A DNA stretch of 64,000 nt from an uncultured delta proteobacterium (GCA_963699755.1 CAVOVB010000007.1:224001-288000), one strand, 5' to 3'. Shown: positions 7,691-49,163, counted from the stretch's first letter. The notes: generated from the sequence alone by a model not told the origin. Numbers and translations are program-made.

Positions 7691-8104
7691 TCAGCCTGGA
7701 AGCTTGAGCGTTTCGATCACGGCGCGGAGCACGTCTCTCCTGACGACCACGCCCACGACGCGGTTGTCTTCGATGACGGGAAATAGCCGCCGTTTCGTTT
7801 CGATGAAGCGCGTCGCCACGTCGAGCAGACCGTCGTCCGCGTTGACGGCCTGTACGTCGCGGCTCATGTAGTCTCCAACGCATCCTCCACGTTCTCCGTG
7901 ATATCCCGCGACCAGCGCAGCTTTCAAGAAGTCCCGCTCCGTCAGCAGGCCGATGAGATTTCCGCGCTCGTCTACGACGGGTGCCCCTGAGATGCGCCGA
8001 TTGACCAATACGGAAACCGCGTCCAGCAAGTCTGTGTCGCTCGTGAACGTCACTGGCTTGGTGAGCATGATGTCGCGAGCTCGGAGCTTCTTGATGGGCT
8101 TCAT
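7691..8104 (-). CDS. CBS-domain pair protein
   Basis: ARDIM, ISGAPVVD..GNLIGLLTERD, VGDYMS; ATGA overlap with nqrM. Confidence 0.92.
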   Translation of the reverse strand: MKPIKKLRARDIMLTKPVTFTSDTDLLDAVSVLVNRRISGAPVVDERGNLIGLLTERDFLKAALVAGYHGERGGCVGDYMSRDVQAVNADDGLLDVATRFIETKRRLFPVIEDNRVVGVVVRRDVLRAVIETLKLPG

Positions 8105-8286
8105 GCGGCGCGCTTCCTCGGGCATTCACCGCTGGCCGCACGGCCGCAGGTGCCACATCCCGAGCCGTCGGGGTTGTTGAGCCCGCCACAGCTGCCGCGA
8201 ATTCCTCCGCGGCCCGCAAGCGCGCCCACACTCAGGCCGGTCAGGGCAAGCGCGAAAACCATGAAGCTGAGCAAGTAGACCATCAC
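8101..8286 (-). CDS. nqrM: Na+-NQR maturation protein NqrM
   Basis: Single TM helix followed by IRGSCGGL and three more Cys; directly after nqrF. Confidence 0.85.
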   Translation of the reverse strand: MMVYLLSFMVFALALTGLSVGALAGRGGIRGSCGGLNNPDGSGCGTCGRAASGECPRKRAA

Positions 8287-8287
8287 C

Positions 8288-9514
8288 TCAACTGCCGAAA
8301 TCGTCGAACATGACGTTCTCCTCAGAGACGCCGAGGTCCCTGAGCATCCCTTGAACCGCGGAAATCATCAAGGGTGGACCGCACATGTAGTATTCGCAGT
8401 CTTCCGGCGCTTTGTGCGCTCCGAGATACATGTCGTACGCGACCTGATGAATGAAACCGGTAGGGCCGTCCCAGTTGTCATCTTCTCTGGGCTCCGAAAG
8501 AGCGACCACGTACGTGAAGTTCGGGTGCTCCTCGGCCAGGCGTTGGAACTCTTCATGGTAGAAGAGATCGCGCCTGCTTCGAACGCCGAACCAGAATGAG
8601 ATTTTGCGTTTTGTCTTGAGGCGTTTGAGCTGATCGAAGATGTGGGAGCGAAGCGGGGCCATGCCGGTGCCACCACCGATAAACACCATCTCGTTGTCGG
8701 TTTCCCTCGCGAAGAACTCGCCATAGGGCCCTGCGATGGTCACCTCGTCCCCGGGCTTCAGGCTGAAAAGATAGGAAGAAACGATGCCCGGAGGCACGTC
8801 CGGGCCGGAGCCCGGCGGCGGCATGGCGATGCCGATGTTGAGCAGGATGATGCCTGTTTCCTCGGGGTAGTTGGCCATCGAGTAGGCCCGCGTCGTGTCG
8901 CTATTGCTGACTGCCTCGAACCTCCAAAGATTGTACTCGTCCCAGGTGTCGCGATACTCCGGCTCGATGTCGAAATCCGAGAACTTTGCTTGAAAGGGCG
9001 GACACTCGACCTGAATGTAGCCCCCGGCCCGGAACGGCACCTCTTCGCCGACTGGAAGGTCGAGGCAGATCTCCTTGATGAAGGTGCTGAGCCCGTGCGT
9101 GGACCGCACCTCGCAGTCCCATTTGCGAACCCCAAACACTTCTTCTGGGATCTCGACGCGGATGTCTTCGCGAACCGCGACTTGGCAGGCTAGCCGGACG
9201 TGTTGCGAGGCCTCATTGCGCGAGATCATCGACTCCTCGGTGGGAAGCAGCGGGCCTCCGCCTGCGAGCACCTTCACCCGACATTGACCGCAGGTGCCCT
9301 TGCCGCCACAGCCGGCCGGCAGGTATAGGCCGGTCTTCGCGAGGGCAATCAAGAGCTTGGACCCGGCGGAGACTTCGAAGTCTTTGTCGCCGTTCACGAG
9401 CATGTGCACGCTGCCGGTTTCGACGAGCTTGGTGCGGGCAACTAGAATCAGGGCGGACAGCGAGACGACGATCCCCGTGAAGACTGCCACAGCCAAGATG
9501 ATTTGAATCGCCAC
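8288..9514 (-). CDS. nqrF: Na+-NQR subunit F
   Basis: [10 protein letters not shown] 2Fe-2[32 protein letters not shown]. Confidence 0.97.
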
Positions 9515-9526
9515 CCTCGTGCCCTC

Positions 9527-10138
9527 CTATAGTTGGATCCCTGCGAAGGCCATGAAGCCGAGGGACATCAGGCCGACGATGATGAAGGTGATCCCAAGCC
9601 CCTGAAGCCCGTTCGGGACGTCGCTGTACTTGAGCTTCTCCCGGATGCCGGCGAGCGCGACCAGAGCCAACGCCCAGCCGAAGCCGCTCCCAATGCCGTA
9701 GACGATGCTCTCGCCCATGGTGTAGTCGCGACGCACCGAGAACAGGGTGCCGCCGAGGATCGCGCAGTTGACCGTAATCAGGGGTAGATAGATGCCGAGC
9801 GCATGGAAGAGCGGCGGGAAATACTTGTCGAGCACCATTTCGAGGATCTGCACCATCGCCGCAATGACCCCAATGTAGGTGACCAGGCCAAGGAAGCTCA
9901 GATCGATGTCCGGCACCCCGGCCCAGGCGAGCGCTCCCTCTTTGAGCACGTAGTTGTAGAGGAAGGTGTTTGCCGGAACGGTGATGAGCTGGACCACGAC
10001 CACTGCCGTCCCCAGGCCGAGGGCGGTTTCGATGCGCTTGGAGACGGCGAGAAAGGTGCACATCCCGAGGAAGAACGAGAGGGCCAGGTTCTCTACGAAC
10101 ACCGCCTTGATGAAAAGCTCGACGTAGCTGCCCATCAC
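9527..10138 (-). CDS. nqrE: Na+-NQR subunit E
   Basis: [23 protein letters not shown]. Confidence 0.96.
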
Positions 10139-10797
10139 ACGACCTCCGTTCGATGGACTTCGTGAATTCGGAACTCGGGCTTTTCGACCTGCTTGGGCTT
10201 CCAGGTCCTGGCCGCCCAGATGATCAGGCCAATCACGAAGAACGCGCTGGGCGGCAAGAGCATCATCCCGTTCGGCTTGTACCAGCCACCGTCTGCCGCG
10301 TTCGGAAAGATCGTATAGCCGAGGAGCGTGCCCGCGCCGAGTAGCTCACGGCTGGTGGCCACGAGGATCAGAATCGTGCTGTAACCGAGGCCGTTCCCTA
10401 TGCCATCGAGGAAGCTCAGGCCGACCGGGTTTTTCGAAGCGAAGCTCTCAGTACGGCCAAGCACGATGCAGTTGGTGATGATCAGGCCTACGAAGACCGA
10501 AAGCTCGCGGCTCGTCTCGAAGGCAAAGGCCTTTAGGGACTCGTCGACGATGATGACCAGAGACGCGATGATCGTCATTTGTACTATGATCCGGATGCCG
10601 CTCGGGAGAATGTGACGAATCGCGCTGACTGCCGCGTTCGAAAGCGCAGCAACCGCGGTGAGCGCAACGCACATGTAGAGCGAAGGCAGCAGCGACGTCG
10701 TGACCGCCAGGGCCGAGCAAATTCCGAGTACCTGCAAGGTGACTGGATTGTCATCGACGATGGGTTCGAGCAGAGCGCGCTTGGCAGGGGAGCTCAT
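10135..10797 (-). CDS. nqrD: Na+-NQR subunit D
   Basis: [33 protein letters not shown]. Confidence 0.96.
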
Positions 10798-11591
10798 GAC
10801 CCTCCTCCTTGAATGTTTTTCAGATAGGGTCCGTACCCGTCGTCGCCGAGCCAGTATTGGACCAGGTTGGACACGCCATTTCCGGTGAGCGTCGCGCCGG
10901 AGACGCCGTCGACGTGGTTGTCAGCGCGGGGGTCTTCGGCAGATACTCGACCCTTGACGACTCGGAGCTCGAGTGCGCCGGAATCATCGAACGCACGCTT
11001 GCCATGCCAAAGCGCGCGCCAAGCGGGCTTGACGATGAAGTCGCCGAGGCCTGGGGTTTCGCCGTGCGCATAGAACGTGATGTCCGAGACCGTGTTTCCG
11101 TCGGCTTCGAGGGCGAGGAAACCGTGGAGGATGGACCAAAGCCCATAGCCGGACACCGGCAGAATGATCTTGCTCAGCTCGTCGTCGCGTCGGACGAGGT
11201 AAACCAGACCGTGCTTGGCGCGTCGCCCGACCTTGGCAATGTCGATCTCCGAAGGGATCCTGACGCTCTGAGCGGGATCCTTGGCGGCTTCGATGGGATC
11301 GTAGGACTCGGGATTGATGTCTTCGGCATAGGCGCCCGTTTCGAGGTCGACGACGCGCACCTCGATGCTTTCGAAAAGCTCGTCGACATCAGCCCCGGGC
11401 GCCCAGAGCCCAGCGACCTCGAGGATGTTTCGGCGCATGTCGACAACGGCGTTCTCGACCTGCCGCGGCTTGAGCAACACGGCCGCAGAGGCGACCAAGG
11501 ACGAGCAGACCAGGCTGACGAAGAGCGCCACCAGCAGGGTACGAGCGACCGTGTCGGCTTTGGCACCTGAATCTTTGGAGGGATCAGACAC
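10794..11591 (-). CDS. nqrC: Na+-NQR subunit C
   Basis: [27 protein letters not shown]-attachment motif. Confidence 0.96.
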
Positions 11592-12798
11592 TTCGACGCA
11601 ACCTCCTGTTGATGTTCACCCGCATGACGAAGTGGTCGATGGTGGGTGCGAAGATGTTGGCGAAGAGGATCGCGAGCATGATCCCCTCGGGAAAAGCGAT
11701 GTTGACCACGCGGATCACGACCGTGATGACCCCCACGAGAATTCCGAAGACCCAACGCCCGGTATTGGTGACACAGGCGCTCACCGGGTCGGTCGCCATG
11801 TACACCATCCCGAAGGCAAAGCCGCCCAAAACGAGATGCCAGTACCAAGGCATGGCATACATCGGGTTGGTATCGGAGCCGACGACGTTGAACAGCAGCG
11901 CAGTCCCAATCATCCCAACCATGACGCCAGCTATGATCCGCCAGGATGCGACGCCGGTCACGGCGATGAAGACGCCGCCGAGAAGGCAGGCCAAGGTGGA
12001 GGTCTCGCCAAGCGAACCCTGAATGGTTCCGAGGAAAGCGTCCATCCAAGTCACGCCCTGCGCGACGATGCCGGCGACGCCGCTTTCCGCACCGATTGCA
12101 AGCGGCGTTGCACCGGTGATCACGTCGATAGGGGGTGTCCAGACGGACTGGCCCGACATCTCCACCGGATAGGCAAAGTAGAGAAAGGCCCGGCCGGCGA
12201 GCGCTGGGTTCATGAAGTTCTTCCCGGTCCCGCCAAAGACTTCTTTCCCGATGACGACACCGAACGAAATGCCCAGCGCAACCTGCCAGAGCGGCGTAGT
12301 GGCGGGCAGGGTCAGGGCATAGAGGATCGAGGTGACGAAGAAGCCCTCGTTGACCTCGTGGTTGCGGACGCCTGCGAAGAGAACTTCCCAAAAGCCCCCC
12401 GCCGCCAAGGTCACTGCGTAGATCGGCAGAAAGTACAGCAGGCCATAGAAGGCCGCGGCACCGACGCTGTTCGGGTCGTGGCCGATTCCGAGCGCCGAGA
12501 TCACGCCCCCTCGCCAGTCGGTAGGCGAGGCCAAGCCGAGCTGCTCGATCGCTAGGTTGGCCTGGTAGCCAGCGTTCCACATCCCGAAGAGCGCGCAGGG
12601 CAAAACGCCAACGACTACGAGGCCCATGACCCGCTTCAAATCGATCGCGTCACGTATGTGCGGCGCGTGACGCGACACGTCGGGAGGCGAGTAGAAAAGC
12701 GTATCGAGCATCTCGTAGATCGCCTGGTAGCTCTCCAGACGCCCGCCCTTTTCGAAGTGGGGCTCGACCTTATCCAGGAGTTTTCGGAGGGGCCGCAT
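11584..12798 (-). CDS. nqrB: Na+-NQR subunit B
   Basis: KEVFGGTGKNFMNPALAGR, TGATPL FMN site, MATDPVS. Confidence 0.97.
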   Translation of the reverse strand: MRPLRKLLDKVEPHFEKGGRLESYQAIYEMLDTLFYSPPDVSRHAPHIRDAIDLKRVMGLVVVGVLPCALFGMWNAGYQANLAIEQLGLASPTDWRGGVISALGIGHDPNSVGAAAFYGLLYFLPIYAVTLAAGGFWEVLFAGVRNHEVNEGFFVTSILYALTLPATTPLWQVALGISFGVVIGKEVFGGTGKNFMNPALAGRAFLYFAYPVEMSGQSVWTPPIDVITGATPLAIGAESGVAGIVAQGVTWMDAFLGTIQGSLGETSTLACLLGGVFIAVTGVASWRIIAGVMVGMIGTALLFNVVGSDTNPMYAMPWYWHLVLGGFAFGMVYMATDPVSACVTNTGRWVFGILVGVITVVIRVVNIAFPEGIMLAILFANIFAPTIDHFVMRVNINRRLRRSV

Positions 12799-14147
12799 CA
12801 GCCGTTCTTCTCGATGAGGTCTAGGTTCGCTCTGAGAAACTCGCCGTATTCGTACTTGCTACAGCAGACGAAGGAGCAAAGCGCGAGGTCTTCTTCTTCG
12901 AGCTCCAGGCAGCCGAGCGCTTTTGCGGTTTCGGTGTCTTCGACGATGAGGGCCTTGAGTAGAGGCGCAGGTAGAATGTCGAGCGGCATCACCTTTTCGA
13001 AGTTGCCGATTGGGATCATCGCACGCGGGCTGCCGTTTTGCGTGGTGCTGAGCCGGAAGCGATAGCTCTGCGGGCGAAAAGAGGCGAGGAAGGCGCGAAT
13101 CGCGGAGTACCTGTCTGCTCCGGGCGCAATCCAACGCAAGAAGTGACGGCTGCGATCCTCGGCGAGCACGCTGATCTGAAGCGCGTAGGGACCGAGGTAC
13201 TGCGCATGCCCGGCCGAGCGCCGACCGCCCAGAACCGAACCGGAAACCACGCGGCAGTCGCCCGGCTCGAGCTCTTCGTTGAGAAGGTCCTCCGTGCTCG
13301 CACCCATCCGCGTACGGAGGAGTCGGGGCTTCTTCACCATCGGGCCGCCGAGGGCGATCACCCGCTCGATGTGAATCCGGCCGCTGGTGAACAAGGCGCC
13401 GATGGCGATCACGTCCTGGTAGTTGAGGTACCACACGAGCTTGTTCTCGCTCACCGGATCGAGAAAATGAATGTGGGTCCCGGGAAGTCCGGCTGGGTGC
13501 GGACCTTCAAAGGTAGCGGAGCGGACCGATTCGAGCTTGGGGAGCTCGAACGATGGCCCCGGTGCCTGGCACACGTGAACCTCGCCATCGGTGAGTCTAC
13601 TGAGGACCGCGACTCCATCGCGAAACGCGTCCATGCGCTCCGCGATGACCACTCGGGGGTCGCCTGCGAGCGGATTCGTATCGATTGCAGTGACGAAGAT
13701 CGAATGCGGCGACGTGCTTGCCGCGGGGATCTTTCCAAAGGGCCGAGTGCGCAACGCAGTCCACAGACCGGAAGCCTGCAGGACCGCCCGAACCTCTTCA
13801 CGATCGAGCGTCGTGAGCTCGGACCGCTCATGCGACGCAAAGACCTCCTCCTCGTCGCCGTCCAAGCGCACGACCACGGATTGAAGTGACCTTCGAGCGC
13901 CACGATGAATCGCAACAATTTCACCGCAGCCCGGCGCGGTGAACATCACGTCCGGATTGTTCTTGTCGATGAGCACTGGCTGCCCAAGGCTCACTCGGTC
14001 ACCCAAGTCGACCTTCAACCTGGGCTGCAATTCAGGGAAATCTCTCGCAACCAGAGCAACCCAGCCGACCGCTTTCGCATTTTCGATGCGCTGCTCGGGG
14101 GCGCCTGCGATGGGGATGTTCAGGCCTCTGCGTATGCGAACGTGCAT
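12798..14147 (-). CDS. nqrA: Na+-NQR subunit A
   Basis: RRGLNIPIAGAP, GPHPAG, LGCLELEEEDLALCSFVC. Confidence 0.97.
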   Translation of the reverse strand: MHVRIRRGLNIPIAGAPEQRIENAKAVGWVALVARDFPELQPRLKVDLGDRVSLGQPVLIDKNNPDVMFTAPGCGEIVAIHRGARRSLQSVVVRLDGDEEEVFASHERSELTTLDREEVRAVLQASGLWTALRTRPFGKIPAASTSPHSIFVTAIDTNPLAGDPRVVIAERMDAFRDGVAVLSRLTDGEVHVCQAPGPSFELPKLESVRSATFEGPHPAGLPGTHIHFLDPVSENKLVWYLNYQDVIAIGALFTSGRIHIERVIALGGPMVKKPRLLRTRMGASTEDLLNEELEPGDCRVVSGSVLGGRRSAGHAQYLGPYALQISVLAEDRSRHFLRWIAPGADRYSAIRAFLASFRPQSYRFRLSTTQNGSPRAMIPIGNFEKVMPLDILPAPLLKALIVEDTETAKALGCLELEEEDLALCSFVCCSKYEYGEFLRANLDLIEKNG

Positions 14148-14199: not shown

Positions 14200-14214
14200 G
14201 CGCAAAACTTGCGC
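14200..14214. promoter_or_regulatory. Palindromic regulator box GCGCA-AAACT-TGCGC
   Basis: Perfect GCGCA-N5-TGCGC in the divergent nqrA/lipoprotein spacer. Confidence 0.7.
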
Positions 14215-14804: not shown

Positions 14805-16118
14805 TCAGCACGGCGATTCTTCGTAGAGATACCCGAGGACGTCTTCGCGCGAGAGAATCCCAACGATCCGTGCGCCGTCGAGCACTGGCAAACGGCCGAT
14901 GTTGTGGGCGGTCATCTGGTCGAGCGCCTCTTGGAGGGATGCGTCCGGACTGATGCTTCGAACTTTGTGCGCCATGCAGCTCTTGACCGCGAGCGAGCCG
15001 CGCCCTTCACGCTGCGCCCTCTCGACATCGCGACGCGAGATGACGCCGACCAGCGCATGGTTCTCGACGACCGGTGCGCCGGTGTGGCCCCACTCGTGAA
15101 GTGACTGGGCAAGCTCGGTCAACGGCATGTCCGGCGCCACGGTCCGGACCGGGCTCGACATGAGGTCGCGCACGATTTTCGGCTCGACGCAGTAGCGCTC
15201 GATGCCTGCACGCAGCCGGCTGACGACTTCGCTCAACGAGGCGTCACGCACGACTCCGGAACCCGCTCCGGCATGCCCGCCCCCGCCGAGCTCTTGGAGA
15301 ATCGCACCGACGGGAATGCTGCTCGACCGTGCCCGACCGATGATGTGGGTCTTACCGTTCGGAAGGCGATAAAGGCAGAAGAGCGCGTCGTATGGAAGAA
15401 TGCGAAACGCCTCGGTCGATACCGAGGCAAGTCCCGCCGGCACCTCTGCGGTCTCCAACGAGGCAATCCCGATCGAGGTGCTGAATCGGGGAAGCTCCTC
15501 CACCGCCTCGATGATCCGCACCAACAAATCGCGCTCGATGGCATCCAAGGCCGGCTTCAAGAATCGTTGAAGCAGCACTGCCTGCGCCCCGTGACCGAGC
15601 AGCCAGCCGAGCGCCATCGCGTCGCGAGAGCTCGAACGCGCATAGGCGAGCGAGCCCGTATCCTCGTGAATCCCCAAAGAAAACAAAGTGGCTTCCTCCC
15701 GATCGATCTCCACGCCGCGCGCCCGCAGCTCTTCGACCAGAAGCGTGGTGACGGCGCCGACGGGCTGCACGTGCTCCTCGTCCGCGTTCAAGTCGTCGGG
15801 CGCGCTAGGGTGATGATCCCAAACGGCGATGCGAACGCTTCGTGGTGCTTGCGCCGAGCGCAAAATCACTTCTTCGACATGCGCCAAGCGGCTGCGGCGG
15901 CGAACGTCTGCCACTATTAGGAAATCCACGTCACCGAGATCGAGGTCCTGGCAGCGTTGCGTTGGAAATCGATCTCCGTGAATCGTCAGATAGTGATGAA
16001 CGTTCGGGGCGAACCCACCGCTCAGACCGATCTGCGAACCTGGAAACAGTTTCTGAAGCGCCACACACGACGCCAAGCCATCGAAGTCGGTGGTCTCGTG
16101 CGAGGTGATGAGCTTCAC
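14805..16118 (-). CDS. DHH/DHHA1 phosphoesterase with C-terminal CBS pair
   Basis: SHETTDFDG, WDHHP, GIHEDTG, GGGGHAGAG, then two CBS repeats. Confidence 0.9.
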   Translation of the reverse strand: MKLITSHETTDFDGLASCVALQKLFPGSQIGLSGGFAPNVHHYLTIHGDRFPTQRCQDLDLGDVDFLIVADVRRRSRLAHVEEVILRSAQAPRSVRIAVWDHHPSAPDDLNADEEHVQPVGAVTTLLVEELRARGVEIDREEATLFSLGIHEDTGSLAYARSSSRDAMALGWLLGHGAQAVLLQRFLKPALDAIERDLLVRIIEAVEELPRFSTSIGIASLETAEVPAGLASVSTEAFRILPYDALFCLYRLPNGKTHIIGRARSSSIPVGAILQELGGGGHAGAGSGVVRDASLSEVVSRLRAGIERYCVEPKIVRDLMSSPVRTVAPDMPLTELAQSLHEWGHTGAPVVENHALVGVISRRDVERAQREGRGSLAVKSCMAHKVRSISPDASLQEALDQMTAHNIGRLPVLDGARIVGILSREDVLGYLYEESPC

Positions 16119-16126
16119 GTCAGATG

Positions 16127-16531
16127 CTACAGAGTGTCCTGGAGCACGCGCAAGAGGTCGACGTAGCTGACGATTCCGAGCAAGTCGCCGGTGTCGAGAT
16201 CAGCGACGGGAATCGCACCCACGCGATGCAGAAGCATCAGCTCCAGGACTTCACGCACGTCGGTCTCGGGATCGACCTTGACCGTGCTGGTGTTCATGAA
16301 ATCGCCGACGGTCGCCGAGCGTGCGCTCTCGATCGCATCGATGGCGTCGTCTTCGCGGGCCGCAGAGAAGCCACGGAGGTCGCGGTCGCTGACGATGCCA
16401 ACGAGCTCACGGCCGCGGACCACCGGAAGGTGCCGGACATCGAGCTCAAAGAGCACTCCCAAAGCTTCGGCGACCGACATCATCTCGGTCGCCGTCACGG
16501 GGTTTTCAGTCATGATGTCTTTTGCGAGCAC
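16127..16531 (-). CDS. CBS-domain pair protein
   Basis: AKDIMT, VRHLPVV..LVGIVSDRD; GAGGAG RBS. Confidence 0.92.
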   Translation of the reverse strand: MLAKDIMTENPVTATEMMSVAEALGVLFELDVRHLPVVRGRELVGIVSDRDLRGFSAAREDDAIDAIESARSATVGDFMNTSTVKVDPETDVREVLELMLLHRVGAIPVADLDTGDLLGIVSYVDLLRVLQDTL

Positions 16532-16565
16532 AAGGTTCTCCTCTCACAGGTCGCCCTCCATGAAG

Positions 16566-17417
16566 CTAGAACATGGGAAACGGCAGGGTTGGCTCCACTG
16601 CATTGAAATCCTGAATGATCTTTAGCGTCGTGACCACCGCTATCAACGAACAAAGATTCGCAGCGACCAGGCTCCAGCCCATGAGGCGGAGCCGACGCGC
16701 CGTCGGCTGAAGGGCAGCCATCAGGAGCACCACGACGGCCACCGGCACCGCCGCCGCGAGAACCCAGAGGCCGAGCCGGGACCCGTAGGGTGCGGCGACC
16801 CCGACGGCGATGACCAGCAAGCAGGCGAGAACCAGCAAGGCTCGCTTGAAACGGACGCGCCTCGAGTCCTCGTCGGTCTTGCCCTTGGTGCGGGCTATGG
16901 TCAGCCGCACCACGGCAGTCCCCAAAAGGGAGGTCGTCAGCCAAATCAACGCGACGGCGAGCGAGGCGGTGAGACCCAGGCCCGTGGAAAGGCCGATCGG
17001 AACTGCGATCGACGAGAGGGCCGCGGCCGCGAGGACTTCTCCAAACATGCTGCGTTCGAGCCCTTGAACGGCCAGCATCACGAGCAAGACGCCTAGCAGG
17101 AGGGGCGCGGCGACGGCGTATTGCACCGGCCTAGACGCAAGCACAAGCCCCGCGATGCCGGCACCCAAGGCAACGAGGCCGAAGACGAGCAGCGCGCGTT
17201 TGGCGCGATCGCTTTCTTCGCGCTGCATGCGGCTCCCCCGCTGCCCGGCTAAGACCAGAAGAGGCTCGTTCGCGAGGAACGCGCCGATCGCGCCGGTAGC
17301 CAGAAGCCAGGTCGAGGTCGTCGGCGCACCACCCAGAACCACGGAGACGATCGGGAAGAGCAGCTCCGCATAGGCGCCGTGCTCGCGCGGGACCATCCTG
17401 CGTTGTCCGGTGCTCAT
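16566..17417 (-). CDS. YwiC-like membrane protein (start 17417 or 17396)
   Basis: N-terminal PREHGAY signature followed by many TM helices. Confidence 0.8.
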   Translation of the reverse strand: MSTGQRRMVPREHGAYAELLFPIVSVVLGGAPTTSTWLLATGAIGAFLANEPLLVLAGQRGSRMQREESDRAKRALLVFGLVALGAGIAGLVLASRPVQYAVAAPLLLGVLLVMLAVQGLERSMFGEVLAAAALSSIAVPIGLSTGLGLTASLAVALIWLTTSLLGTAVVRLTIARTKGKTDEDSRRVRFKRALLVLACLLVIAVGVAAPYGSRLGLWVLAAAVPVAVVVLLMAALQPTARRLRLMGWSLVAANLCSLIAVVTTLKIIQDFNAVEPTLPFPMF

Positions 17418-20702: not shown

Positions 20703-20902
20703 TGGAGATCTTGATCTTACTGATTTTCATTTGCGTAATACTGGTTGGCGTCGCGGTAGCGTTCTTCGCGTGGACCGTGCGGCAAGGGACTTTCGATCAG
20801 GCCGATCGCCTTGCCCTGCTCCCGCTTGACGATGAAAAGCCCATGACCCCAACGACGGAGAGGGAAGAGGACGAGTATGGAAACCCAGCGGATCGTTTAT
20901 AA
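20702..20902 (+). CDS. ccoS: cbb3 oxidase maturation protein CcoS
   Basis: MEILILLI...[11 protein letters not shown]...LLPLDD; position between ccoI and ccoN. Confidence 0.88.
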
Positions 20903-23222: not shown

Positions 23223-23404
23223 GTCGACTTGCCGCCGAATTCTTCGAACGAAGCCCCGTGCTGCTCTATCCGCTGCTCGCACTGGCTTTGTTCTTCATCG
23301 TGTTTCTTGTCGTCATCGTTAGCGTCATGCGGATGAAGAAATCCAAGGCGGACGAATACGCACGCATTCCGCTCCAAAAGGAGTCGGAGGTACCACATGA
23401 GTGA
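23219..23404 (+). CDS. ccoQ: cbb3 oxidase subunit CcoQ-like
   Basis: One TM helix, YARIPL tail, position between ccoNO and ccoP. Confidence 0.75.
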
Positions 23405-23969: not shown

Positions 23970-24013
23970 GGCCAGCTTGCCGGATGGACTTCCGACCCTA
24001 AAGACAGCCGAGG

Positions 24014-25823: not shown

Positions 25824-25826
25824 GGG

Positions 25827-26979: not shown

Positions 26980-27012
26980 CCAGCCCCCGATCGAGAGGAC
27001 GGAACACGCCAA

Positions 27013-34005: not shown

Positions 34006-34013
34006 GGTGAACG

Positions 34014-40280: not shown

Positions 40281-40325
40281 CTCATTCACCTCTTCGTGTG
40301 ACTCGCTCGCTGCGCGGGCTTCCAT

Positions 40326-40775
40326 TCAAATCGCGACCTCCTCACGAAGGTGCTCGATGAGCTCGGCCTCCTTGCTGGTCGCCAGGTCTTTGTGAAGCGA
40401 GCCTACCACGAGCCGAGCGGTGGGTTCGTCGAGGGAGGAACGCAGCAATCCCAAGAACCTGGGAGGTGCTACCAAGACCAGTCGCTCGAACTGATTCTGC
40501 GTACGGGCGTGCTGGAGCTTGTCCGCTAGCGCTCTGGCAAAGTCGGCTACCACCCTATCATGCGGGCCTTCGCTCTGACTCATCGAAGCTCGGCGGGGAT
40601 CTCCACTGTTCTTGCGGAACGATCGTCCCGGACGATCAGAGTCGATGTCCCGGTCCCGAGCCCGCCCTTCGGGATGCTCGATCGACTCGACGAGCGTCAG
40701 CCCGGTGCCCGGGCCATGGTTTTCGAACACACGCGCGCCGGCCTCGTGAGCCACCAAAATCCATGTGCTGTTCAT
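40326..40775 (-). CDS. Host-attachment (Host_attach/baeRF12-like) release-factor-related protein
   Basis: TWILVA...ARVF, SDRPGR, LVLVAPPRFLGLLR, KDL; GGAGG RBS. Confidence 0.85.
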   Translation of the reverse strand: MNSTWILVAHEAGARVFENHGPGTGLTLVESIEHPEGRARDRDIDSDRPGRSFRKNSGDPRRASMSQSEGPHDRVVADFARALADKLQHARTQNQFERLVLVAPPRFLGLLRSSLDEPTARLVVGSLHKDLATSKEAELIEHLREEVAI

Positions 40776-40798
40776 TTTCATCCCTCCGCGGCTGCAAG

Positions 40799-41134
40799 TC
40801 ACGAAGCCGGCAATGAAGGAAGCGGCCGAAGCTCGATGATCTGCTTTGTGCCGTCCCCGGTGATCACCTCGATGCTCGAAAGCTTCCCAGCCTCCTCTCG
40901 AACGTAGATCTCCTTTGGTTTGGAAACCCGATGCGAGATGTTCGAGGCGTCGACTTCAAAAACCTGTTCATTCGAGTCGTAACTGATACCAACCAGCGAG
41001 CTATTCTCGCTTTCGGGCTGCACGCCAATGCTCTCCCCCATAATGGATATCCCCACCCGCATGGACGGAAGGCTCTTTGCGACCTTGTCGAAGTACCGTT
41101 GCCATTCCGTGGGCTCTAGCTTTCGTGTTGTCAT
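40799..41134 (-). CDS. DUF5335-like protein
   Basis: WQRYFD, LVGISYD, HRVSKPKEI pattern; GGAGGAG RBS. Confidence 0.75.
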   Translation of the reverse strand: MTTRKLEPTEWQRYFDKVAKSLPSMRVGISIMGESIGVQPESENSSLVGISYDSNEQVFEVDASNISHRVSKPKEIYVREEAGKLSSIEVITGDGTKQIIELRPLPSLPAS

Positions 41135-41333: not shown

Positions 41334-42884
41334 GTGATGGGAGAGCTGAAGGCAGATCTCGAGGCCCGCGGCTTCGAGCTCATCGAGACACATATCTCAT
41401 GGGTCTTTTTGGGCGCCGAGCTAGTGTACAAGGTCAAGCGCCCAGTCGACCTTGGCTTCCTCGACTTCACGACCACCGAAAAGCGCCGAGCGGCCTGCTA
41501 CTCAGAGCTCCGCCTCAACCGACGGCTCGCGCCCGACGTCTACCTCGATGTGCTGCCGATCACGGTCGATGAATCGGGCCTGCACGAGATCGCCGGCCAA
41601 GGCGAAGTCGTGGACTGGGCCGTGCAAATGCGGCGCCTACCCGTTCAAAGGCGCGCAGACGAGCTCTTGAAAGCCGGCTTGCTGACGCCCGGGCAGATCG
41701 ACGCGCTCGCCGCGCACATTGCTAGATTCCACGAAGGCGTGCGCTGCGACTCGGAGACCTCCAAGCATGGCGCCGTCGAAACAATCCGCCAAAACGTAAG
41801 AGAGAATTTCGAGCAGACCCGAGACTCGATCGGAGACTATCTGAGTCCGGAGCAAGCGCGCGAAGTCGAAACCTGGCAATCGAAGGCGCTCGGCAATGAT
41901 GCTCCGTTCGTGGCGCGAACCATGGCCGGACGCGTCCGCGACGGGCACGGAGACTTGAGGCTCGAGCACGTGTATTTCGAATCGGACGGGTCGATCTCGA
42001 TCATCGACTGCATCGAGTTCAACGATCGCTTCCGATACGGCGACGTCTGCGCGGACATCGCGTTCTTGTCGATGGACCTCGCCTGGCACGGACGTGTGGA
42101 CCTCGCCGAGCGATTCCTGGCGCGCTACGCCCGTGAATCGAACGACTACGCGCTCTACTCAGTGGTAAACTTCTATGAGAGCTACCGGGCCTTCGTGAGA
42201 GGCAAGGTCGCTTCATTGCTAGCCGCGGACACGGAGGCATCCCCAGCCACAAGGGCCCGTGCTCGACGGGAAGCTAGGCGCTACTTCCTCCTCGCTCTGG
42301 CATTTGAACGCCCGCCGCTCGTTCCGCCGAGGGTCGTCGTGGTCGCCGGAATGATCGGGAGTGGAAAGAGTCAGACCGCGGCGACGATCGGCGATTTGCT
42401 CGCCGCTCCCGTCCTCAGCTCGGATCGGACTCGGAAGCTGCTCATGGGCCGAAAGGCGACAGACCCCCTCCCGGGCGGAGCTTGGTCCGGCGCGTACTCC
42501 CGAGGCACCACCAAGCTGGTGTACGACGAGCTTCTGAGGCTCGCCGAGATCGTGCTCTCTTCCGGTCGTCCGGTCGTGATCGATGCCTCGTTTCGGACCG
42601 CCGCGATGCGCGGAGCCACCCGCTCCTTGGCGGAGCGGCACGGGGTTCCATTCATGCTGGTCGAGTGCATCGCCTCCCGAGAGCTGATTACTGAGCGGCT
42701 CGCCGCCCGCGAAGGCGCCGGGACACACGAGAGTGATGCAAGGGCCGACTTGATGGACGAGTTCGAAAAGCGCTTCGAGCCCATCGACGAGCTTGAGTCA
42801 TCGGAGCACCTTCGATTGGACACCTCTCGACCCGTCGACGAGACGCGGGACCTGCTCGAACGAGCCTTCGCAAGCTACGTGTAG
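41334..42884 (+). CDS. Bifunctional APH-like kinase / AAA_33 P-loop protein (Rv2004c-like)
   Basis: ETHISWVF, ELRLNRRLAP, DGHGDL, DCIEFN; GMIGSGKS, SSDRTRK, IDASF. Confidence 0.9.
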   Translation: MMGELKADLEARGFELIETHISWVFLGAELVYKVKRPVDLGFLDFTTTEKRRAACYSELRLNRRLAPDVYLDVLPITVDESGLHEIAGQGEVVDWAVQMRRLPVQRRADELLKAGLLTPGQIDALAAHIARFHEGVRCDSETSKHGAVETIRQNVRENFEQTRDSIGDYLSPEQAREVETWQSKALGNDAPFVARTMAGRVRDGHGDLRLEHVYFESDGSISIIDCIEFNDRFRYGDVCADIAFLSMDLAWHGRVDLAERFLARYARESNDYALYSVVNFYESYRAFVRGKVASLLAADTEASPATRARARREARRYFLLALAFERPPLVPPRVVVVAGMIGSGKSQTAATIGDLLAAPVLSSDRTRKLLMGRKATDPLPGGAWSGAYSRGTTKLVYDELLRLAEIVLSSGRPVVIDASFRTAAMRGATRSLAERHGVPFMLVECIASRELITERLAAREGAGTHESDARADLMDEFEKRFEPIDELESSEHLRLDTSRPVDETRDLLERAFASYV

Positions 42885-42885
42885 G

Positions 42886-43782
42886 TCAGGGACGAACCGC
42901 AAGCACCGGAACGGGCGAATACCGAAGGCAATATTGTGAGGCGCTGCCAAGCATCATACCACGCAACCGTCCCTGTCCCCTGCAGCCCACGAAAACGAGG
43001 TCGGCGTGGATGCTCGTGGCCGTATTGCAGATGGTCTTCCCGATCGGTCCATCCAGGATCTGTATCGTCGTGCTCGGCTTGAGCCCTTCGGTCACGACGA
43101 GCTGCTCGAGCCGTGAACGCGCGGCCGAGGAGATGCCTTCGAGAACGCTCGGCCACTCGCTTGGCATCTTTCTCTCGGTGATTGGGTGCGGCACCACGTG
43201 CAGCAGCGCCACCTGACCGTCGATCGCGTTCGCGACATCCCGCGCCCAGCGAACGGCTTCGATCCCGTGCGCAGAAAAGTCGACACCGACGGCGATGCGC
43301 GCTTTCGAGTAGTCGCTGCGAAGTCGCCCACAGGAAACCAGGACCGAGCAGGGAGCTTGCCTGACGACCCGCTCCGCCGTCGAACCGAGCAAGCGCTCCG
43401 GCAGACCGATCGCTCCCGCCGGATCGCCCACCGCAATCAAGTCGGCGTTGACCGAAACAGCGGTGCGCAGGATCGTTTCCCAAGGACGACCCTCTTCACA
43501 GGAAGTCTGGCAACTCAGACCCAGGTCTTCGCAGGCCTTGCGCTCGCTTTCGAGCTCTTCGATCGAGTTTTCGAAGCGCCCTTTTAGTCGCTCGCGAAGC
43601 GCCTGCGCGGCCGTCCTCGCGCCAATGGGCAGATCGGGCCATGGATGATCCAAGCCCACCTCGTTCGCATGCACCAGCCAGAGGGTCGCGCCCGTGGCCT
43701 GCGCGGTCGAGATCGCGAGCTGCATCGCACGGTGGCCTGACTCACCTAGGTCGGTTCCCACAACGATCGTCTTGATGGCCAT
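42886..43782 (-). CDS. Tandem-domain universal stress protein
   Basis: IVVGTD...LLGSTAERVVRQAPCSV; VGVDFS...GCRGQG...LGSAS. Confidence 0.92.
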   Translation of the reverse strand: MAIKTIVVGTDLGESGHRAMQLAISTAQATGATLWLVHANEVGLDHPWPDLPIGARTAAQALRERLKGRFENSIEELESERKACEDLGLSCQTSCEEGRPWETILRTAVSVNADLIAVGDPAGAIGLPERLLGSTAERVVRQAPCSVLVSCGRLRSDYSKARIAVGVDFSAHGIEAVRWARDVANAIDGQVALLHVVPHPITERKMPSEWPSVLEGISSAARSRLEQLVVTEGLKPSTTIQILDGPIGKTICNTATSIHADLVFVGCRGQGRLRGMMLGSASQYCLRYSPVPVLAVRP

Positions 43783-43794
43783 AGATCCTGCCCG

Positions 43795-43810
43795 AGCAAG
43801 CACCATGCCA
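43795..43810 (-). promoter_or_regulatory. Putative sigma54 promoter for the USP gene
   Basis: TGGCATG-GTGC-TTGCT on the minus strand. Confidence 0.75.
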
Positions 43811-43850
43811 GATTCCTCTGGAGAAATCTCCCCTTCTCACGACGGCCTGC

Positions 43851-44282
43851 TCACATTCCTGGATCGGAGAGCGATTGGATCGCGTATTCCACGAAATCGG
43901 AGTCAGTTAGCATGCCAACGAGCTTCCCGTCCTCGACGACCGGTACACAGCCGTAAGCATGGGAGCGGAGGATCAGCGCCGCTTCCAAGGCTGGCGTGTC
44001 GGGATAGACCGTACGCACTTCTTTCGTCATGACCCACCGCGCTTCGATCCAGCGGTTCATGTGTGACTGCTCAGTCGAGAGGGCGCCCGATAGGCTTCCT
44101 TCCTGACTCCGCAGCACGTCACGGTGCGAGATGAGCCCGAGCAAGCGCGCCGTCTCGTCCACCACGGCGACGTGGCGGATGTGGTGTGCTTCCATCAGTT
44201 GAATGACCTCCCGAAGCGGGCTGGTCGGACCGACGGTCTTCACGGGCTGCTTCATGAGATCTCGGACCAGTAGCTGCGCCAT
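43851..44282 (-). CDS. CBS-domain pair protein
   Basis: VRDLMK, IRHVAVV, GCVPVVEDGKLVGMLTDSD. Confidence 0.92.
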   Translation of the reverse strand: MAQLLVRDLMKQPVKTVGPTSPLREVIQLMEAHHIRHVAVVDETARLLGLISHRDVLRSQEGSLSGALSTEQSHMNRWIEARWVMTKEVRTVYPDTPALEAALILRSHAYGCVPVVEDGKLVGMLTDSDFVEYAIQSLSDPGM

Positions 44283-44461: not shown

Positions 44462-45889
44462 ATGCCGGAAACCTTCTACGAGCGTCTGAGCGCCTTGGAT
44501 GCGACGTTCCTCGACGTCGAAAGTAAGTCCGCGCCCATGCATGTCGGTGCGGCCCTGGTGTTCGACGCAAAACCGCTCACCCTCGAGCACGGAGGCCTCG
44601 ATATCGAGCGCCTAAGCAAGTACACCGAGGCGGCGGTGGACTCGATTCCCCGCTACCGGCAGCGGATCGAATGGATTCCGGGGTACCGACACCCGGTTTG
44701 GGTCGACGACGATCGGTTCAACATGCACTTCCATCTGCGCCACACGCGGCTGCCCCTGCCGGGTGACGAGCGCTCGCTCAAGCGCTTGGTCGGCCGACTG
44801 TTCTCGCAGCACCTCGATCGGAGCAGGCCGCTTTGGGAGTTCTGGGTCGTCGAAGGAGTGGAGAATGACCGCTTCGCGCTGGTCATCAAAGTGCATCACT
44901 GCATGGTGGACGGCATCGCGGGCGTCGAGCTGCTTCAAGCCTTGTTGCAGATCAGCCCGGACGCGGTGGAGCGCGAGCCAGAACCATGGCAGGCGCGCCC
45001 GGCCCCGAGCGGCTTGCAGCTTCTCGTCAATGAGACGAACCACCGAGTCGACGGTCTGCGCAAGCTCAGTCACTTCATGCCCCGCGTTCGAGAGAACTTC
45101 AAAGGAGTGTCGAACGTGTTGCGTTCTGGAATGAAGCCCGCTCCACGGACACCATTTACCGAGCATGACATCAGCCCATACCGTCGATTCGACTGGACGA
45201 CCTTCGCGCTGGACGACGTGAAGGCGATCAAGAACGCTTTGGGCGGAACGATCAACGATGTTGTTGTCGCGACGACTACAGCCGCCGTGCGGCGCTATCT
45301 TCTACGTCATGGCACGGACGTGAATGCAATGGAAGGTTTCCGTACGCTGCTTCCCGTGAACACCAGGAAAGTCGGTGGGCCGTCGGGCGGGAATCACGTA
45401 GCCATGCTGCTCGCAGATCTCCCCGTGTCCGAACCGGACCCCACCGAACGATTGCAGAAGGTCATTCGCGTGACCACGGAGTTGAAGAACGAGTCCAACC
45501 AGACCGGAGGCGCCGAGCTTCTCGAAGATGTGGCCGACCTCACGACCAAGCGCATCGTTTCCGAGCTCTACCGCGCGGCGATGAAGCTGCGCACCTACAA
45601 CTTGATCATTACCAACGTCCCAGGGCCGCCGATCCCACTCTACATGCTCAGTGCGCGGATGACGGCCATCTATCCGATGGTCCCCTTGATGCAAAACCAG
45701 AACCTCGGCATTGCTCTGTTCAGCTACGCCGGCAATCTGCACTTTGGATTCAACGCGGACTGGGAATCTTTCCCCGACGTTCATGAATTCGTCGAGGATC
45801 TCGACGCTTCCTTCTCTGAGTACCAGCAGCTCGCCGCCATACGCTCTACGGAACTGCCAGGAGGAAAGGACGCTCGGGCGCGGGCCTAG
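44462..45889 (+). CDS. Wax ester synthase / diacylglycerol acyltransferase
   Basis: PMHVG, LDRSRPLWE, catalytic HHCMVDG, TINDV, TNVPGP. Confidence 0.95.
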   Translation: MPETFYERLSALDATFLDVESKSAPMHVGAALVFDAKPLTLEHGGLDIERLSKYTEAAVDSIPRYRQRIEWIPGYRHPVWVDDDRFNMHFHLRHTRLPLPGDERSLKRLVGRLFSQHLDRSRPLWEFWVVEGVENDRFALVIKVHHCMVDGIAGVELLQALLQISPDAVEREPEPWQARPAPSGLQLLVNETNHRVDGLRKLSHFMPRVRENFKGVSNVLRSGMKPAPRTPFTEHDISPYRRFDWTTFALDDVKAIKNALGGTINDVVVATTTAAVRRYLLRHGTDVNAMEGFRTLLPVNTRKVGGPSGGNHVAMLLADLPVSEPDPTERLQKVIRVTTELKNESNQTGGAELLEDVADLTTKRIVSELYRAAMKLRTYNLIITNVPGPPIPLYMLSARMTAIYPMVPLMQNQNLGIALFSYAGNLHFGFNADWESFPDVHEFVEDLDASFSEYQQLAAIRSTELPGGKDARARA

Positions 45890-45903: not shown

Positions 45904-47327
<1,424 letters not shown>

Positions 47328-47331
<4 letters not shown>

Positions 47332-48509
47332 GCCCCGGTCGGAATCCAGAACGACGCGCGTGTGCCACCATGAGGGAGCGGGGTCAGCGTCGCAGCGCCG
47401 CCGTGTAGGTCGACGATTCGCTTGACGATCGCAAGGCCGAGACCGGTACCGGCGTCCTTCGTGGTGACGAAGGACTCAAAGGCCCGCCCAAGGACTTCGC
47501 TCGAGACTCCGGGACCATTGTCGATCACGGCGAACTCCCAGCGCTTGTCGCTCAAGATCCGGCTAGTGATCCGGATGGCCGGCTGAGGGCAGCTCGCCAC
47601 TGCTTCGACCGCGTTCGTAATGAGATTGTTGACGACTTGCTTGAGGCGGTCGCTCTCGACTACCAGGGTGCAGGAACCCGCGTCGATGTCCTCGATGAAC
47701 TCAATCCCTTGTGACTCGATCTCTGGGCGGCGCAGCTCCAGGACCTCGCCGAGTAGCGTGCTCGCGTCGCAAGGGACTGGCTCCATCCGCCGGGCCCGAG
47801 CCAAGTTCAAGAAATCGTCCAACAAGAGCGACAGTCGCCGGAGCTCATCCTGTACCACGTTGGTCCGCCGTTCGATCTTGCGACGGGTGGATGCGTCCTC
47901 GACGCGCGAGGCCGTCCGCCGGAGAACATCGAGTTGTAGCTTCGCGGCGTTGAGCGGGTTTCTCACCTCATGAGCCAAGCCGGCGGTAAGGCGCCCCATC
48001 ACCGCGAGCGACTCCGCTTCGGCAGTCTTCTTGAGCACGTAGGCCTCGCGATAGCTTTCGAGCATGATGGCCAGCTCGATATCGCAAATCTGGTCGATCA
48101 CCCGGTGGTCTTCGAAGACCACTGAGCCGTCGGGAGCCGACTCCCACACGGCACGATGAAGGCCGACACGAACTAGATTCATAGCGCCGAGCATGTATCG
48201 CTGTTCGAGCCCGACCTTGACGTGGACGCGGCCGATCCGGGCGCGCCCTTCGTAGTACGCGCTGTCGTAGGTGCCCTCGAACAGCCCCTGGAGCCAGCGC
48301 CTGAACGAGAGCTTGAGGCGCTCGACCTGGGCTTCGCTCGTCAGCACCGCGCGCGCGCCGGGATCTTCGAGGATCGCCTCGTAGAACCGAGCCACGATGC
48401 CCTCGTGATAGGGCTCCATCCGACTACGCATCGCCCGCAAGCGACGGGCGGACTCGGCATCGAACCTCACGTAGCTTCTGAGGGCCGCAAGCAGGCTGGC
48501 ATCGGCCAT
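47328..48509 (-). CDS. Globin-coupled sensor histidine kinase (NmpU/GcHK-like)
   Basis: Sensor globin (IVARFY, RIGRVHVKVGL), H-box AHEVRNPL, NLITNA, DNGPG, GTGLGL; no TM helix. Confidence 0.92.
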
Positions 48510-48565
48510 TAGGCCTGGCTAAGAAACTGCGCCCCTCCTGTCAAGCGATTACGCCAATCGACCGG

Positions 48566-49033
48566 TCAAAAGGCCGACAGCGGGGGAAGCCGGACCATGC
48601 TCACTGGGCACGGCGCCTCCATGGCGAGCCTCTGGATGTCGAAGGGATTGACCTGATCAGCTCCGGTCATTGGCTGAATGCCAAGTAGGATCAGGTCGGC
48701 GCTCGAGCGCTGAGCGCTCTGCAAGACGTAGTCAGGCCAATGCCCGTCTTCGTAGAGCTCCGCTCTGCAGCGGACGCCGCGATCGGCACACCATTGCCGT
48801 TGGCGCTCGAGGAGCTGCCCTTCTTGGCGCAGCCTTGCCTCCACCCGGTCGCGCCAGCCATTGCCGTCCTCGCGCATCGACGGTGGAGGCTCAGTCCGTC
48901 GGCTCCCGCCACCTCCGTAGGTAGAAACCAAAACCACCTCGCCGTCGGTGGGACCAGCGATCAACGCAGCGAACCCCACCAGCTTGTAGCTCGCGGACGT
49001 CAGGTCCGTCACGGTAAGAATTGTAGATGCCAT
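48566..49033 (-). CDS. Divergent universal stress protein
   Basis: TILTVTD, ADLILLG, APCPV; ATP-binding glycine motif degenerate. Confidence 0.7.
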   Translation of the reverse strand: MASTILTVTDLTSASYKLVGFAALIAGPTDGEVVLVSTYGGGGSRRTEPPPSMREDGNGWRDRVEARLRQEGQLLERQRQWCADRGVRCRAELYEDGHWPDYVLQSAQRSSADLILLGIQPMTGADQVNPFDIQRLAMEAPCPVSMVRLPPLSAF

Positions 49034-49061
49034 ACGCGCCACCAGAGCCATTCGAACCAGC

Positions 49062-49077
49062 AGCAAAGTGCATGCCA
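49062..49077 (-). promoter_or_regulatory. Putative sigma54 promoter for USP (and possibly the kinase)
   Basis: TGGCATG-CACT-TTGCT on the minus strand. Confidence 0.75.
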
Positions 49078-49148
49078 TGTAAGAAACCCTGCAATACGGC
49101 GCACCGCTCGGTCGGCCGTCGGAAATCCTTGCGGGGAAAATCGAGAAT

Positions 49149-49163
49149 ACGCAGTTTTTGCGT
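49149..49163. promoter_or_regulatory. Palindromic regulator box ACGCA-GTTTT-TGCGT
   Basis: Perfect arms; a half-site-only partner lies 29 bp away at 49120-49134. Confidence 0.72.

Follow-up and report, generated by a model that had tools for sequence, protein, structure and literature searches.

The window analysed here is the whole stretch of 64,000 nucleotides G000:C7:224001-288000 (G000 being its own assembly), and our subject is a block of genes at 7691-49163 that ends in a globin-coupled histidine kinase (HK) and a sigma-54 activator. The kinase gene (47328..48509, minus strand) encodes a fused protoglobin-HisKA-HATPase_c protein of 393 amino acids, and the convergent activator gene (45904..47331, plus strand) encodes a receiver domain (REC, with D74), an AAA+ domain (GAFTGA motif at 239) and a Fis-type helix-turn-helix (HTH). 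From the sequence comparisons reported below, we think it likely that this hybrid kinase phosphorylates the NmpR-type activator directly, most likely when its haem is free of O2, which would turn the block on at low oxygen.

The genes were called by codon usage, and 60 hand-picked open reading frames (ORFs) were scanned with Pfam and 29 with NCBIfam. All the gene families that an earlier note had listed for the block were confirmed in place, namely five universal stress protein (USP) genes (at 25413, 25827, 27013, 42886 and 48566); five CBS genes (at 7691, 14805 (DHH-CBS), 16127, 39516 and 43851); nqrA-F (every gene above the NCBIfam equivalog cut-off); a cco set (ccoI-S-NO-Q-P-G plus a DsbD_2 gene); a cytochrome c with two CxxCH motifs; four glycogen genes, one of which is a synthase-phosphorylase fusion; and genes for a hemerythrin, a CoA-transferase, a wax ester synthase/diacylglycerol acyltransferase (WS/DGAT), an APH-AAA_33 protein and a baeRF12/Host_attach protein. 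Homologues bear the label Polyangiales in their sources. The same note had taken one globin kinase and one sigma-54 activator as the controllers of the block, which the orthology and the conserved operator boxes described below support as most likely.

Kinase, activator and the missing relay partners

In Myxococcus xanthus, NmpU is reported to be on in O2 and to phosphorylate the receiver of NmpS, which keeps NmpS off, and NmpR to be phosphorylated only by NmpS, not by NmpU (PMC6211767). Loci of Myxococcus, Pyxidicoccus, Corallococcus and Anaeromyxobacteraceae comprise a globin-HK, a REC-REC and a REC-HK protein in a row, with NmpR nearby, and all nine loci fetched from sister genera of the same family as the window have kept both NmpU and a REC-PAS-HK.

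From the following lines of evidence, we conclude that the window's kinase is, with high probability, a hybrid of an NmpU globin sensor and an NmpS kinase core. First, an NmpU-type globin occupies residues 5-157 or so, and the HisKA-HATPase core follows directly after a junction at about residues 158-162 (window about 48026-48040). Second, in comparison with the nine relay loci (9/9), the globin is 41-55% identical to NmpU, whereas the DHp domain is 51-63% identical to NmpS and 26-41% identical to NmpU; the helix after the phospho-His is of the REC-HK type, not of the globin-HK type. Third, in trees of the cores (98 of 176 rows; 45 rows) the window's core nests among NmpS cores with a Shimodaira-Hasegawa-like approximate likelihood ratio test (SH-aLRT) value of 98 and groups with the REC-PAS-HKs of Polyangiales (95), the NmpU cores have a clade of their own (99), and the monophyly of the window's core with NmpU cores was rejected by the approximately unbiased (AU) test (p=0.0058). 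Fourth, the globin tree places the window with the NmpU globins of sister lineages (98 in one tree, 99 in another). Thus, the kinship with NmpU that the earlier note had suggested for the kinase holds for the globin, but not for the core, which is of NmpS type, so that the kinase is not an NmpU. The residues Y43, H96, H180, N184, N295 and D330 are invariant in 51 aligned relatives, as are the N and G boxes of the core; Y43 and H96 align with Y45 and H99 of the globin kinase AfGcHK, and N184 presumably confers phosphatase ability. No report of a globin-NmpS fusion was found in the open-access literature, S2 Fig of PMC6211767 (on Nmp synteny) and text supplements lying outside that coverage, and the words 'fused' and 'fusion' are absent from the main text of that paper.

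Among 48 sigma-54 activators, the one encoded in the window belongs to the NmpR clade (99 SH-aLRT), together with NmpR of Myxococcus and Anaeromyxobacteraceae, and the recognition helix motif of its HTH is identical to that of NmpR. By phylogeny and by this helix it is an orthologue of Myxococcus NmpR, and the link to the Myxococcus NmpU/NmpR system that the earlier note had drawn was right in this respect.

As to the other relay proteins, an NmpS query from the same family produced full-length matches in 23 of 33 sister-genus genomes, and split or partial ones in five more, versus none in the 55 genomes of the window's genus (two queries were used, and many of these genomes are near complete). 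The 27 genus matches to the NmpS query at E<=1e-50 cover only the core and, where checked, lie in the frame of the globin kinase. Neither NmpS nor NmpT was found in the window; NmpT was also absent from three genus loci scanned, the other genus genomes being without a genome-wide NmpT search, and G000 has no ORF made only of a double receiver. Several relay loci read nmpU, nmpT, nmpS and then convergent nmpR, and we propose that an in-frame deletion across this nmpU-nmpT-nmpS operon, one that begins where the NmpU globin ends and runs up to the NmpS core, would give the layout of the window. Tree nesting and gene order argue for a fusion rather than a fission. In two other loci, relay proteins share one frame (NmpU-REC-NmpS in L043 and NmpT-NmpS in L061), which may be real or due to sequencing errors.

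With 28 fused and 31 relay cores of NmpS type, the AU test rejected a single origin of the fused ones (p=4.7e-6). Five changes are required on the core tree, two of them forced by strongly supported branches, and the globin tree forces three; these trees indicate that similar fusions arose more than once. One large fused group has the organisation globin-PAS-core, and the homologues of one of its members are assigned by their sources to Polyangium, Sorangium (including S. cellulosum) and Minicystis. In the fused loci an NmpR-like gene still lies nearby, often along with USP, CBS or cco genes, although their 14-kb stretches contained no paired boxes. The same globin was also seen on a third, unrelated kinase class, a hybrid HK-REC-REC with a 31-residue spacing (L029, L031, L033 and L174). 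Some genomes (L167, L168, L169; L178, L179; L077, L090) have two or three globin kinases, and in some of this set a globin fused to an RsbR/STAS-like tail, named by eye, lies nearby.

Operator boxes and the genes they precede

The NmpR binding site is reported to be GCGCA-N5-TGCGC, mostly occurring in pairs 14-15 bp apart ahead of sigma-54 promoters, and NmpR to control CBS, USP, P-type ATPase-cbb3, hemN-hemerythrin and nmpU genes, its first target being induced 6.5-fold by hypoxia in M. xanthus (PMC11841059). One Myxococcus locus of our set has two boxes before the globin kinase that are 24 bp apart, as published for nmpU. Boxes were counted if they had no more than one mismatch and lay up to 350 bp upstream of orthologous genes, in genomes that are kin and with the window and its second copy on contig C1 of the same assembly included; divergent genes share box sites in these per-gene counts. 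The box is conserved at eight sites of the block, mostly beside sigma-54 promoters, versus one box in 178 upstream regions of sixteen control genes and about 0.2 per gene in shuffles. The paired boxes of the block are 29-30 bp apart from start to start, which corresponds to the published gap of 14-15 bp, and the density of boxes is 10 in the 41-kb block versus 326 in 5.35 Mb.

At the right end, a USP gene (48566..49051, minus strand) is likely co-transcribed with the kinase, of which it lies 5' in the genus loci fetched; it is preceded on that strand by a sigma-54 promoter (49062-49077, present in 18/18 loci) and an NmpR box (49149-49163, 14/18), so the USP-kinase operon is predicted to be autoregulated. 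Upstream of the activator gene lies the gene of the WS/DGAT (44462..45889, plus strand), a wax ester/triacylglycerol (TAG) synthase with its HHxxxDG motif intact. It is divergent from a CBS-pair gene (43851-44282), which together with a tandem USP gene (42886-43782, with its own sigma-54 site at 43795-43810) occupies the minus strand at 42886..44282. Between them stand paired boxes (44334-44348 and 44364-44378) and a sigma-54-like element (44431-44446, plus strand), with a box in 14/18 loci on the WS/DGAT side and 12/16 on the CBS side.

Further to the left, an APH-like kinase fused to AAA_33 (41337..42884, plus strand; its APH match is below the cut-off) is divergent from a likely operon of DUF5335, baeRF12/Host_attach and CBS proteins (39516..41134, minus strand). 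The interval holds a box (41221-41235) and a sigma-54 site (41165-41180, minus strand); both are present in 10/10 loci on the DUF5335 side, and the box in 14/16 on the APH-AAA side. The glycogen/alpha-glucan operon (30518..39469, plus strand) encodes a debranching enzyme, GT4 and GH57 proteins and the glycogen synthase-phosphorylase fusion. Its upstream region contains paired boxes (30347-30361 and 30377-30391) and a sigma-54 site (30452-30467), with a box in 15/17 loci, at least two boxes in 13/17 and the sigma-54 site in 16/17. The fusion itself (35213-39469, 1418 amino acids) joins a GT3-like glycogen synthase to an alpha-glucan phosphorylase and is kept across the genus.

The genes for the hemerythrin, a tandem USP, the di-haem cytochrome c and an acetyl-CoA hydrolase/CoA-transferase (26518..30340, plus strand) are divergent from two single-domain USP genes (25413..26306, minus strand). 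Between the two groups lie paired boxes (26392-26406 and 26421-26435) and divergent sigma-54 sites (26466-26481 on the plus strand and a weaker one at 26334-26349 on the minus strand); on the hemerythrin side we counted a box in 12/17 loci, at least two boxes in 14/17 and the sigma-54 site in 16/17. The cbb3 operon (17581..25402, plus strand: DsbD_2, the P-type ATPase CcoI, ccoS, fused ccoNO, ccoQ, ccoP and ccoG) has paired boxes within the ccoI coding sequence (20502..20546, plus strand), 200 and 170 bp 5' of ccoS, the promoter they serve being uncertain (box in 15/16 loci, at least two boxes in 13/16). The box codons are fixed in 16/16 sequences, the Ala column being the only such one of 45, the Leu column the only one of 66 and the Arg columns two of 30, and, since other conserved columns vary in their codons, the pair is maintained at the DNA level. 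Another box (17484-17498) lies between DsbD_2 and the divergent ywiC gene (12/14 and 11/16 loci on the ywiC and DsbD_2 sides, respectively), with a weak sigma-54-like element at 17431-17446 on the minus strand; a cco-side sigma-54 site occurs in 7/16 loci and is degenerate in this genome.

The ywiC group (14805..17417, minus strand) comprises a YwiC-like protein, a CBS pair and the DHH-CBS protein. The latter (14805-16118) resembles the N-terminal half of an A-adding tRNA nucleotidyltransferase, below the cut-off, and its gene is absent from the C1 copy and from the related genome G005. A Cys-rich lipoprotein-like gene at 14261-14803, between nqrA and the DHH-CBS gene, has no Pfam match and occurs in only some relatives. 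The last group, nqrABCDEF with a CBS pair and with a small gene called NqrM-like from its position alone (7691..14147, minus strand), is a variable member of the block. A single perfect box upstream of nqrA (14200..14214) is weakly conserved (6/13), and no conserved sigma-54 site accompanies it. The earlier note had extended the programme to carbon storage and sodium pumping. The storage genes do carry conserved boxes, but the membership of nqr is weak, given this box count, the lack of a conserved sigma-54 site, and relatives in which nqr is unlinked or not found.

Genome-wide scans of G000 were performed with weight matrices trained on the orthologous block promoters of other genomes, a bias that favours the block. 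The scan for a box plus a sigma-54 site gave 30 matches, 11 of which are in the two block copies; several of those outside belong to a repeat of about 100 bp that is scattered through intergenic regions and in which one NmpR-like box is separated by about 55 bp from a sigma-54-like element (G000:C2:367607, 368082, 844841, 845438 and 846677; C3:3213). The scan for paired boxes gave 17 matches, eight in the two block copies and nine outside, the latter being close to chance level (a shuffled megabase predicts 2 per Mb). No common theme was seen among the genes beside the outside matches (29 of 77 ORFs scanned). The best candidate for a regulon member outside the block is a LamG/ConA-like lectin gene, with strong paired boxes and a sigma-54 site 5' of it at G000:C5:69157-69243 (L140).

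Two norC/norB/norQ/norD-like operons (G000:C1:1813841-1818761 and C1:401263-406175; L190, L191, L194-L210) were named from motifs, gene order and a COX1-family match, no NCBIfam match being found. A near-perfect NmpR box stands about 130 bp 5' of norC in 14 of 16 loci, followed by a sigma-70-like promoter, with no sigma-54 site. The block, which the earlier note had called self-contained, is therefore clustered as claimed but shares its conserved box with these unlinked operons. A second activator of the NmpR clade is encoded at G000:C1:648357-649817 (L141:8357-9817, minus strand), near a divergent box-plus-sigma-54 pair and a small gene; its receiver is degenerate, with no acidic pocket and with a Glu in place of the phospho-Asp.

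Signal polarity and rival explanations

For AfGcHK, activity is reported in the Fe(II)-O2, Fe(III) and Fe(II)-CO forms, and inactivity in the deoxy Fe(II) form (PMC8697598). If such an O2-active sensor were joined to NmpR without an inverter, the hypoxia regulon would be on in air, unless the sign of the response had changed. In the relay-bearing sister genera, cco, USP, CBS and hemerythrin genes already lie beside the relay, so the outputs and the operator predate the fusion. An A-type oxidase is encoded elsewhere in the genome, outside the block, so cbb3 is plausibly the low-O2 option; a bd oxidase had no match in the genome. Outputs older than the fusion and the A-type oxidase together suggest that the net sign was most likely kept and that the kinase should load NmpR when deoxy. 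Thus, the fused kinase probably signals in its deoxy form, opposite to AfGcHK.

In the mechanism that we propose, haem and O2 would be bound through the conserved Y43 and H96, and the activator would receive the phosphate at D74 directly from the kinase, given that the kinase core has the partner-specificity helix of NmpS. The polarity would be reversed relative to AfGcHK and NmpU, since the inverting step was lost while the low-O2 outputs and the operator were kept, the kinase being on when deoxy and/or the phosphatase on when oxy. A one-residue-longer linker within a continuous helix may set this polarity, and the kinase's own box and promoter would provide positive feedback. One structural observation on the linker agrees with this: the distance from the last conserved globin Tyr to the phospho-His is 26 in 79/79 and 22/22 NmpU-type loci (the two sets share a few loci, and three globin ORFs were not measurable by pattern) and in AfGcHK (Y157 to H183), versus 27 in 120/120 close homologues of the window's protein. 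AlphaFold2 predicted one helix over residues 132-202, with a mean predicted local distance difference test (pLDDT) score of 78.9. In YF1, 7n+1 linkers are reported to invert polarity (PMC5431215), in that case by engineering and with a LOV sensor, whereas the present case would be natural and with a globin. That this single extra residue now does the NOT operation formerly done by two proteins, a natural and repeated collapse giving an O2-inhibited globin kinase, is a proposal to which we give an even chance.

Several points weigh against this interpretation. The 120 homologues are close kin (at least 72% identity) and not independent, and the other direct fusions have spacings of 27 (L159, like this genus), 32 (L037), 35 (L002) and 51 (L009 and L161), so that we rejected one added residue as a general rule for fusions; no direct fusion keeps the NmpU register, and the cases are too few to exclude chance. 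The pLDDT of the helix model falls below 50 at residues 174-181, and in phytochrome kinases the inverted variants are reported to be spread over several registers (PMC11164954). The trees are quick searches with SH-aLRT support only, the AU tests used LG+G4, and M. xanthus sequences were represented by other named Myxococcus loci. The boxes at nqrA, DsbD_2, APH-AAA and norC adjoin sigma-70-like, not sigma-54, elements, and a box may therefore not always imply activation. Finally, ccoNO had no match in 8 of 55 genus genomes, of which five have a completeness of at least 90% and a contamination of at most 5%, and cbb3 is therefore not an obligatory output of the system.

The fusion may also be real with the polarity of AfGcHK kept, O2 turning the kinase on and the block being induced when O2 reaches a mostly anoxic cell. 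This would suit the globin, which is of the type found in AfGcHK and shares its distal Tyr and proximal His; every block gene can be read as serving O2 use or buffering or carbon storage, and the norC/norB-like operons suggest periods without O2. We nevertheless regard it as unlikely. With a kept polarity, the response of an inherited regulon would be reversed, one that in sister genera lies next to the intact relay already and whose orthologous promoters are hypoxia-induced in M. xanthus; this explanation also sits poorly with the repeated origin of such fusions and with the A-type oxidase outside the block. Rather unlikely too is a kinase that reads NO, CO or the redox state of its haem, or that is a largely default-on NmpS core tuned by other inputs. 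The activity of AfGcHK is reported to track the spin state and not O2 as such, Fe(III) and Fe(II)-CO being active (PMC8697598), NmpS to be more active when unphosphorylated (PMC6211767), and the conserved NmpR box 5' of the norC-like operons could be read in the same sense; against this, Y43, H96 and the linker from globin to His vary little or not at all among relatives, which suggests that ligand-coupled control was retained, and the outputs match an O2 regulon.

It is very improbable that the kinase is an ordinary NmpU which signals via NmpS or another inverter encoded elsewhere, the system then being the known relay with its genes dispersed. Across the genus there does occur a REC-HK-REC protein with 31-36% identity to the NmpS of Myxococcus, and metagenome-assembled genomes are incomplete; however, the G000 copy of this protein lies outside the NmpS clade, no full-length NmpS was found in 55 genomes, many of them near complete, and the kinase core is itself of NmpS type. 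We therefore favour a hybrid kinase that acts directly on the activator at low oxygen.

The characterised globin-coupled kinases (AfGcHK and NmpU) are O2-activated, or predicted to be so, and need a second kinase for inversion; an O2-inhibited globin-coupled histidine kinase is a class that was not found in the literature searched. FixL is an O2-inhibited haem kinase, as predicted here, with a PAS sensor and not a globin. If the fusion is O2-inhibited, the same sensor domain would give opposite outputs depending on a short helix. Nature would thereby offer a matched pair for studying how kinase activity is controlled by a globin sensor, no full-length structure of a globin-coupled kinase being available according to PMC8697598. 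The system would, moreover, illustrate clearly how a multi-step circuit was simplified in nature, more than once, with its logic kept. The independent globin-PAS-NmpS fusions of cultured Sorangium, Polyangium and Minicystis open a way to an in vivo test, and a two-gene O2 switch with a known operator might be of use in synthetic biology. As for ecology, the block is likely the low-O2 regulon of a widespread myxobacterial genus, in which glycogen and wax-ester/TAG storage share an operator with cbb3. A metatranscriptome (0.08 word share) consisted of short contigs, mostly <95% alike and mostly of relatives, from which no expression, habitat or O2 signal was drawn.

Related systems and chromosomal setting

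The clustered low-O2 regulon, although real, has close counterparts among the systems already described. It resembles NmpRSTU of M. xanthus, as described in Bretl 2018 (PMC6211767) and McAllister 2025 (PMC11841059), in its orthologous activator, its operator with 14-15 bp spacing, its sigma-54 promoters, its overlapping outputs (CBS, USP, P-type ATPase plus cbb3, and hemerythrin), the autoregulated sensor operon and the globin type. It differs in having two proteins instead of four, with no NmpS or NmpT, the globin on an NmpS core and the NmpU-to-NmpS inversion gone, and in that the outputs lie in one block together with glycogen, WS/DGAT, CoA-transferase, baeRF12 and APH-AAA genes. AfGcHK (Anaeromyxobacter sp. 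Fw109-5; PDB 5OHE), the best PDB match, has the same globin-HisKA-HATPase layout, distal Tyr and proximal His, whereas the window's core belongs to another clade, with a linker one residue longer (27 versus 26), and is predicted to have another partner and the opposite response to O2.

The lxa locus of Burkholderia cenocepacia is likewise described as a contiguous low-O2 locus of about 50 genes, with six USPs, storage-polymer and electron-transfer genes, normal guanine-plus-cytosine (GC) content and a shared promoter motif, and its authors note the overlap with DosR (Sass 2013, PMC3721108). Its motif is the Anr/Fnr-like TGA-N6-TCA, and the parts of that paper available to us describe no globin kinase or sigma-54 activator (PMC3721108).

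The earlier note had viewed the block as a DosR-like regulon wired to a different sensor; instead, it corresponds to the known NmpR regulon enlarged with storage genes. DosS and DosT are GAF-haem sensors and DosR is a NarL/LuxR-type regulator, families unrelated to the protoglobin kinase and the sigma-54 activator of the block. The likeness to Rv2626c, Rv2004c, Rv2629 (which has been linked to release factors) and tgs1 is a match of domain families, in a comparison that contained no mycobacterial sequences. One block CBS protein has AcuB-like best PDB matches, baeRF12 has no PDB match and the APH-AAA protein one weak PDB match. What the mycobacterial DosS/DosT-DosR system has in common with the block is a haem kinase active when deoxy (a polarity that is predicted here) and, at the level of domain families only, the USP, CBS and WS/DGAT outputs (PMC11203133). 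The baeRF families have been tied to translational dormancy by gene neighbourhood (PMC6514570).

The block is not the island that the earlier note had called it. Its GC content per 2-kb window is 0.59-0.66, versus 0.62-0.63 for the contigs (about 0.625 for the genome), no integrase was found among the 60 window ORFs scanned with Pfam, and luxR-type and reductase genes recur on both sides of the block across the genus loci; horizontal transfer of a genomic island was rejected on these grounds. We compared the kinase region of 18 other genus genomes, which were picked for long contigs, some of them without cbb3, and are not a random sample. Nine of the 18 have nqr, cco and the kinase linked in the order of the window (G062 partly by coordinates), in four the region contains cco and the kinase but no nqr, and in the other five it has the kinase block but no cco. 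This recurrence of an identical order in independent genomes, found by the synteny comparison that the earlier note had proposed, led us to reject misassembly or chance clustering. Protoglobin family matches occur in 52/55 genomes of the genus, with few exceptions within an ORF of about 396 amino acids, versus 47/55 for ccoNO and 45/55 for nqrB; nqr is unlinked in G014 and G050 and has no match in 10/55. Thus, the block is an inherited chromosomal cluster, of which nqr and cco are movable modules.

Contig C7 is for the most part colinear with a stretch of contig C1, from the same assembly, their nucleotide identity being about 78-89%. It duplicates the C1 region at about 1.58-1.91 Mb, with a 99.8% match over the last 5.5 kb of C7. 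Because of this colinearity and of the near-identical end, the assembly is a mix of two related populations in which the block is present in two copies; its contamination is 9.04% (CheckM-type). The tRNA nearest to the block, 7 kb off, is a tRNA-Gly(CCC) at window 433-506, with no integrase seen beside it. Left of the block, two paralogous LuxR-HTH regulators (2537-3568 and 6560-7615, neither with an NmpR box upstream) flank a sulfotransferase gene and two short-chain dehydrogenase/reductase (SDR) genes.

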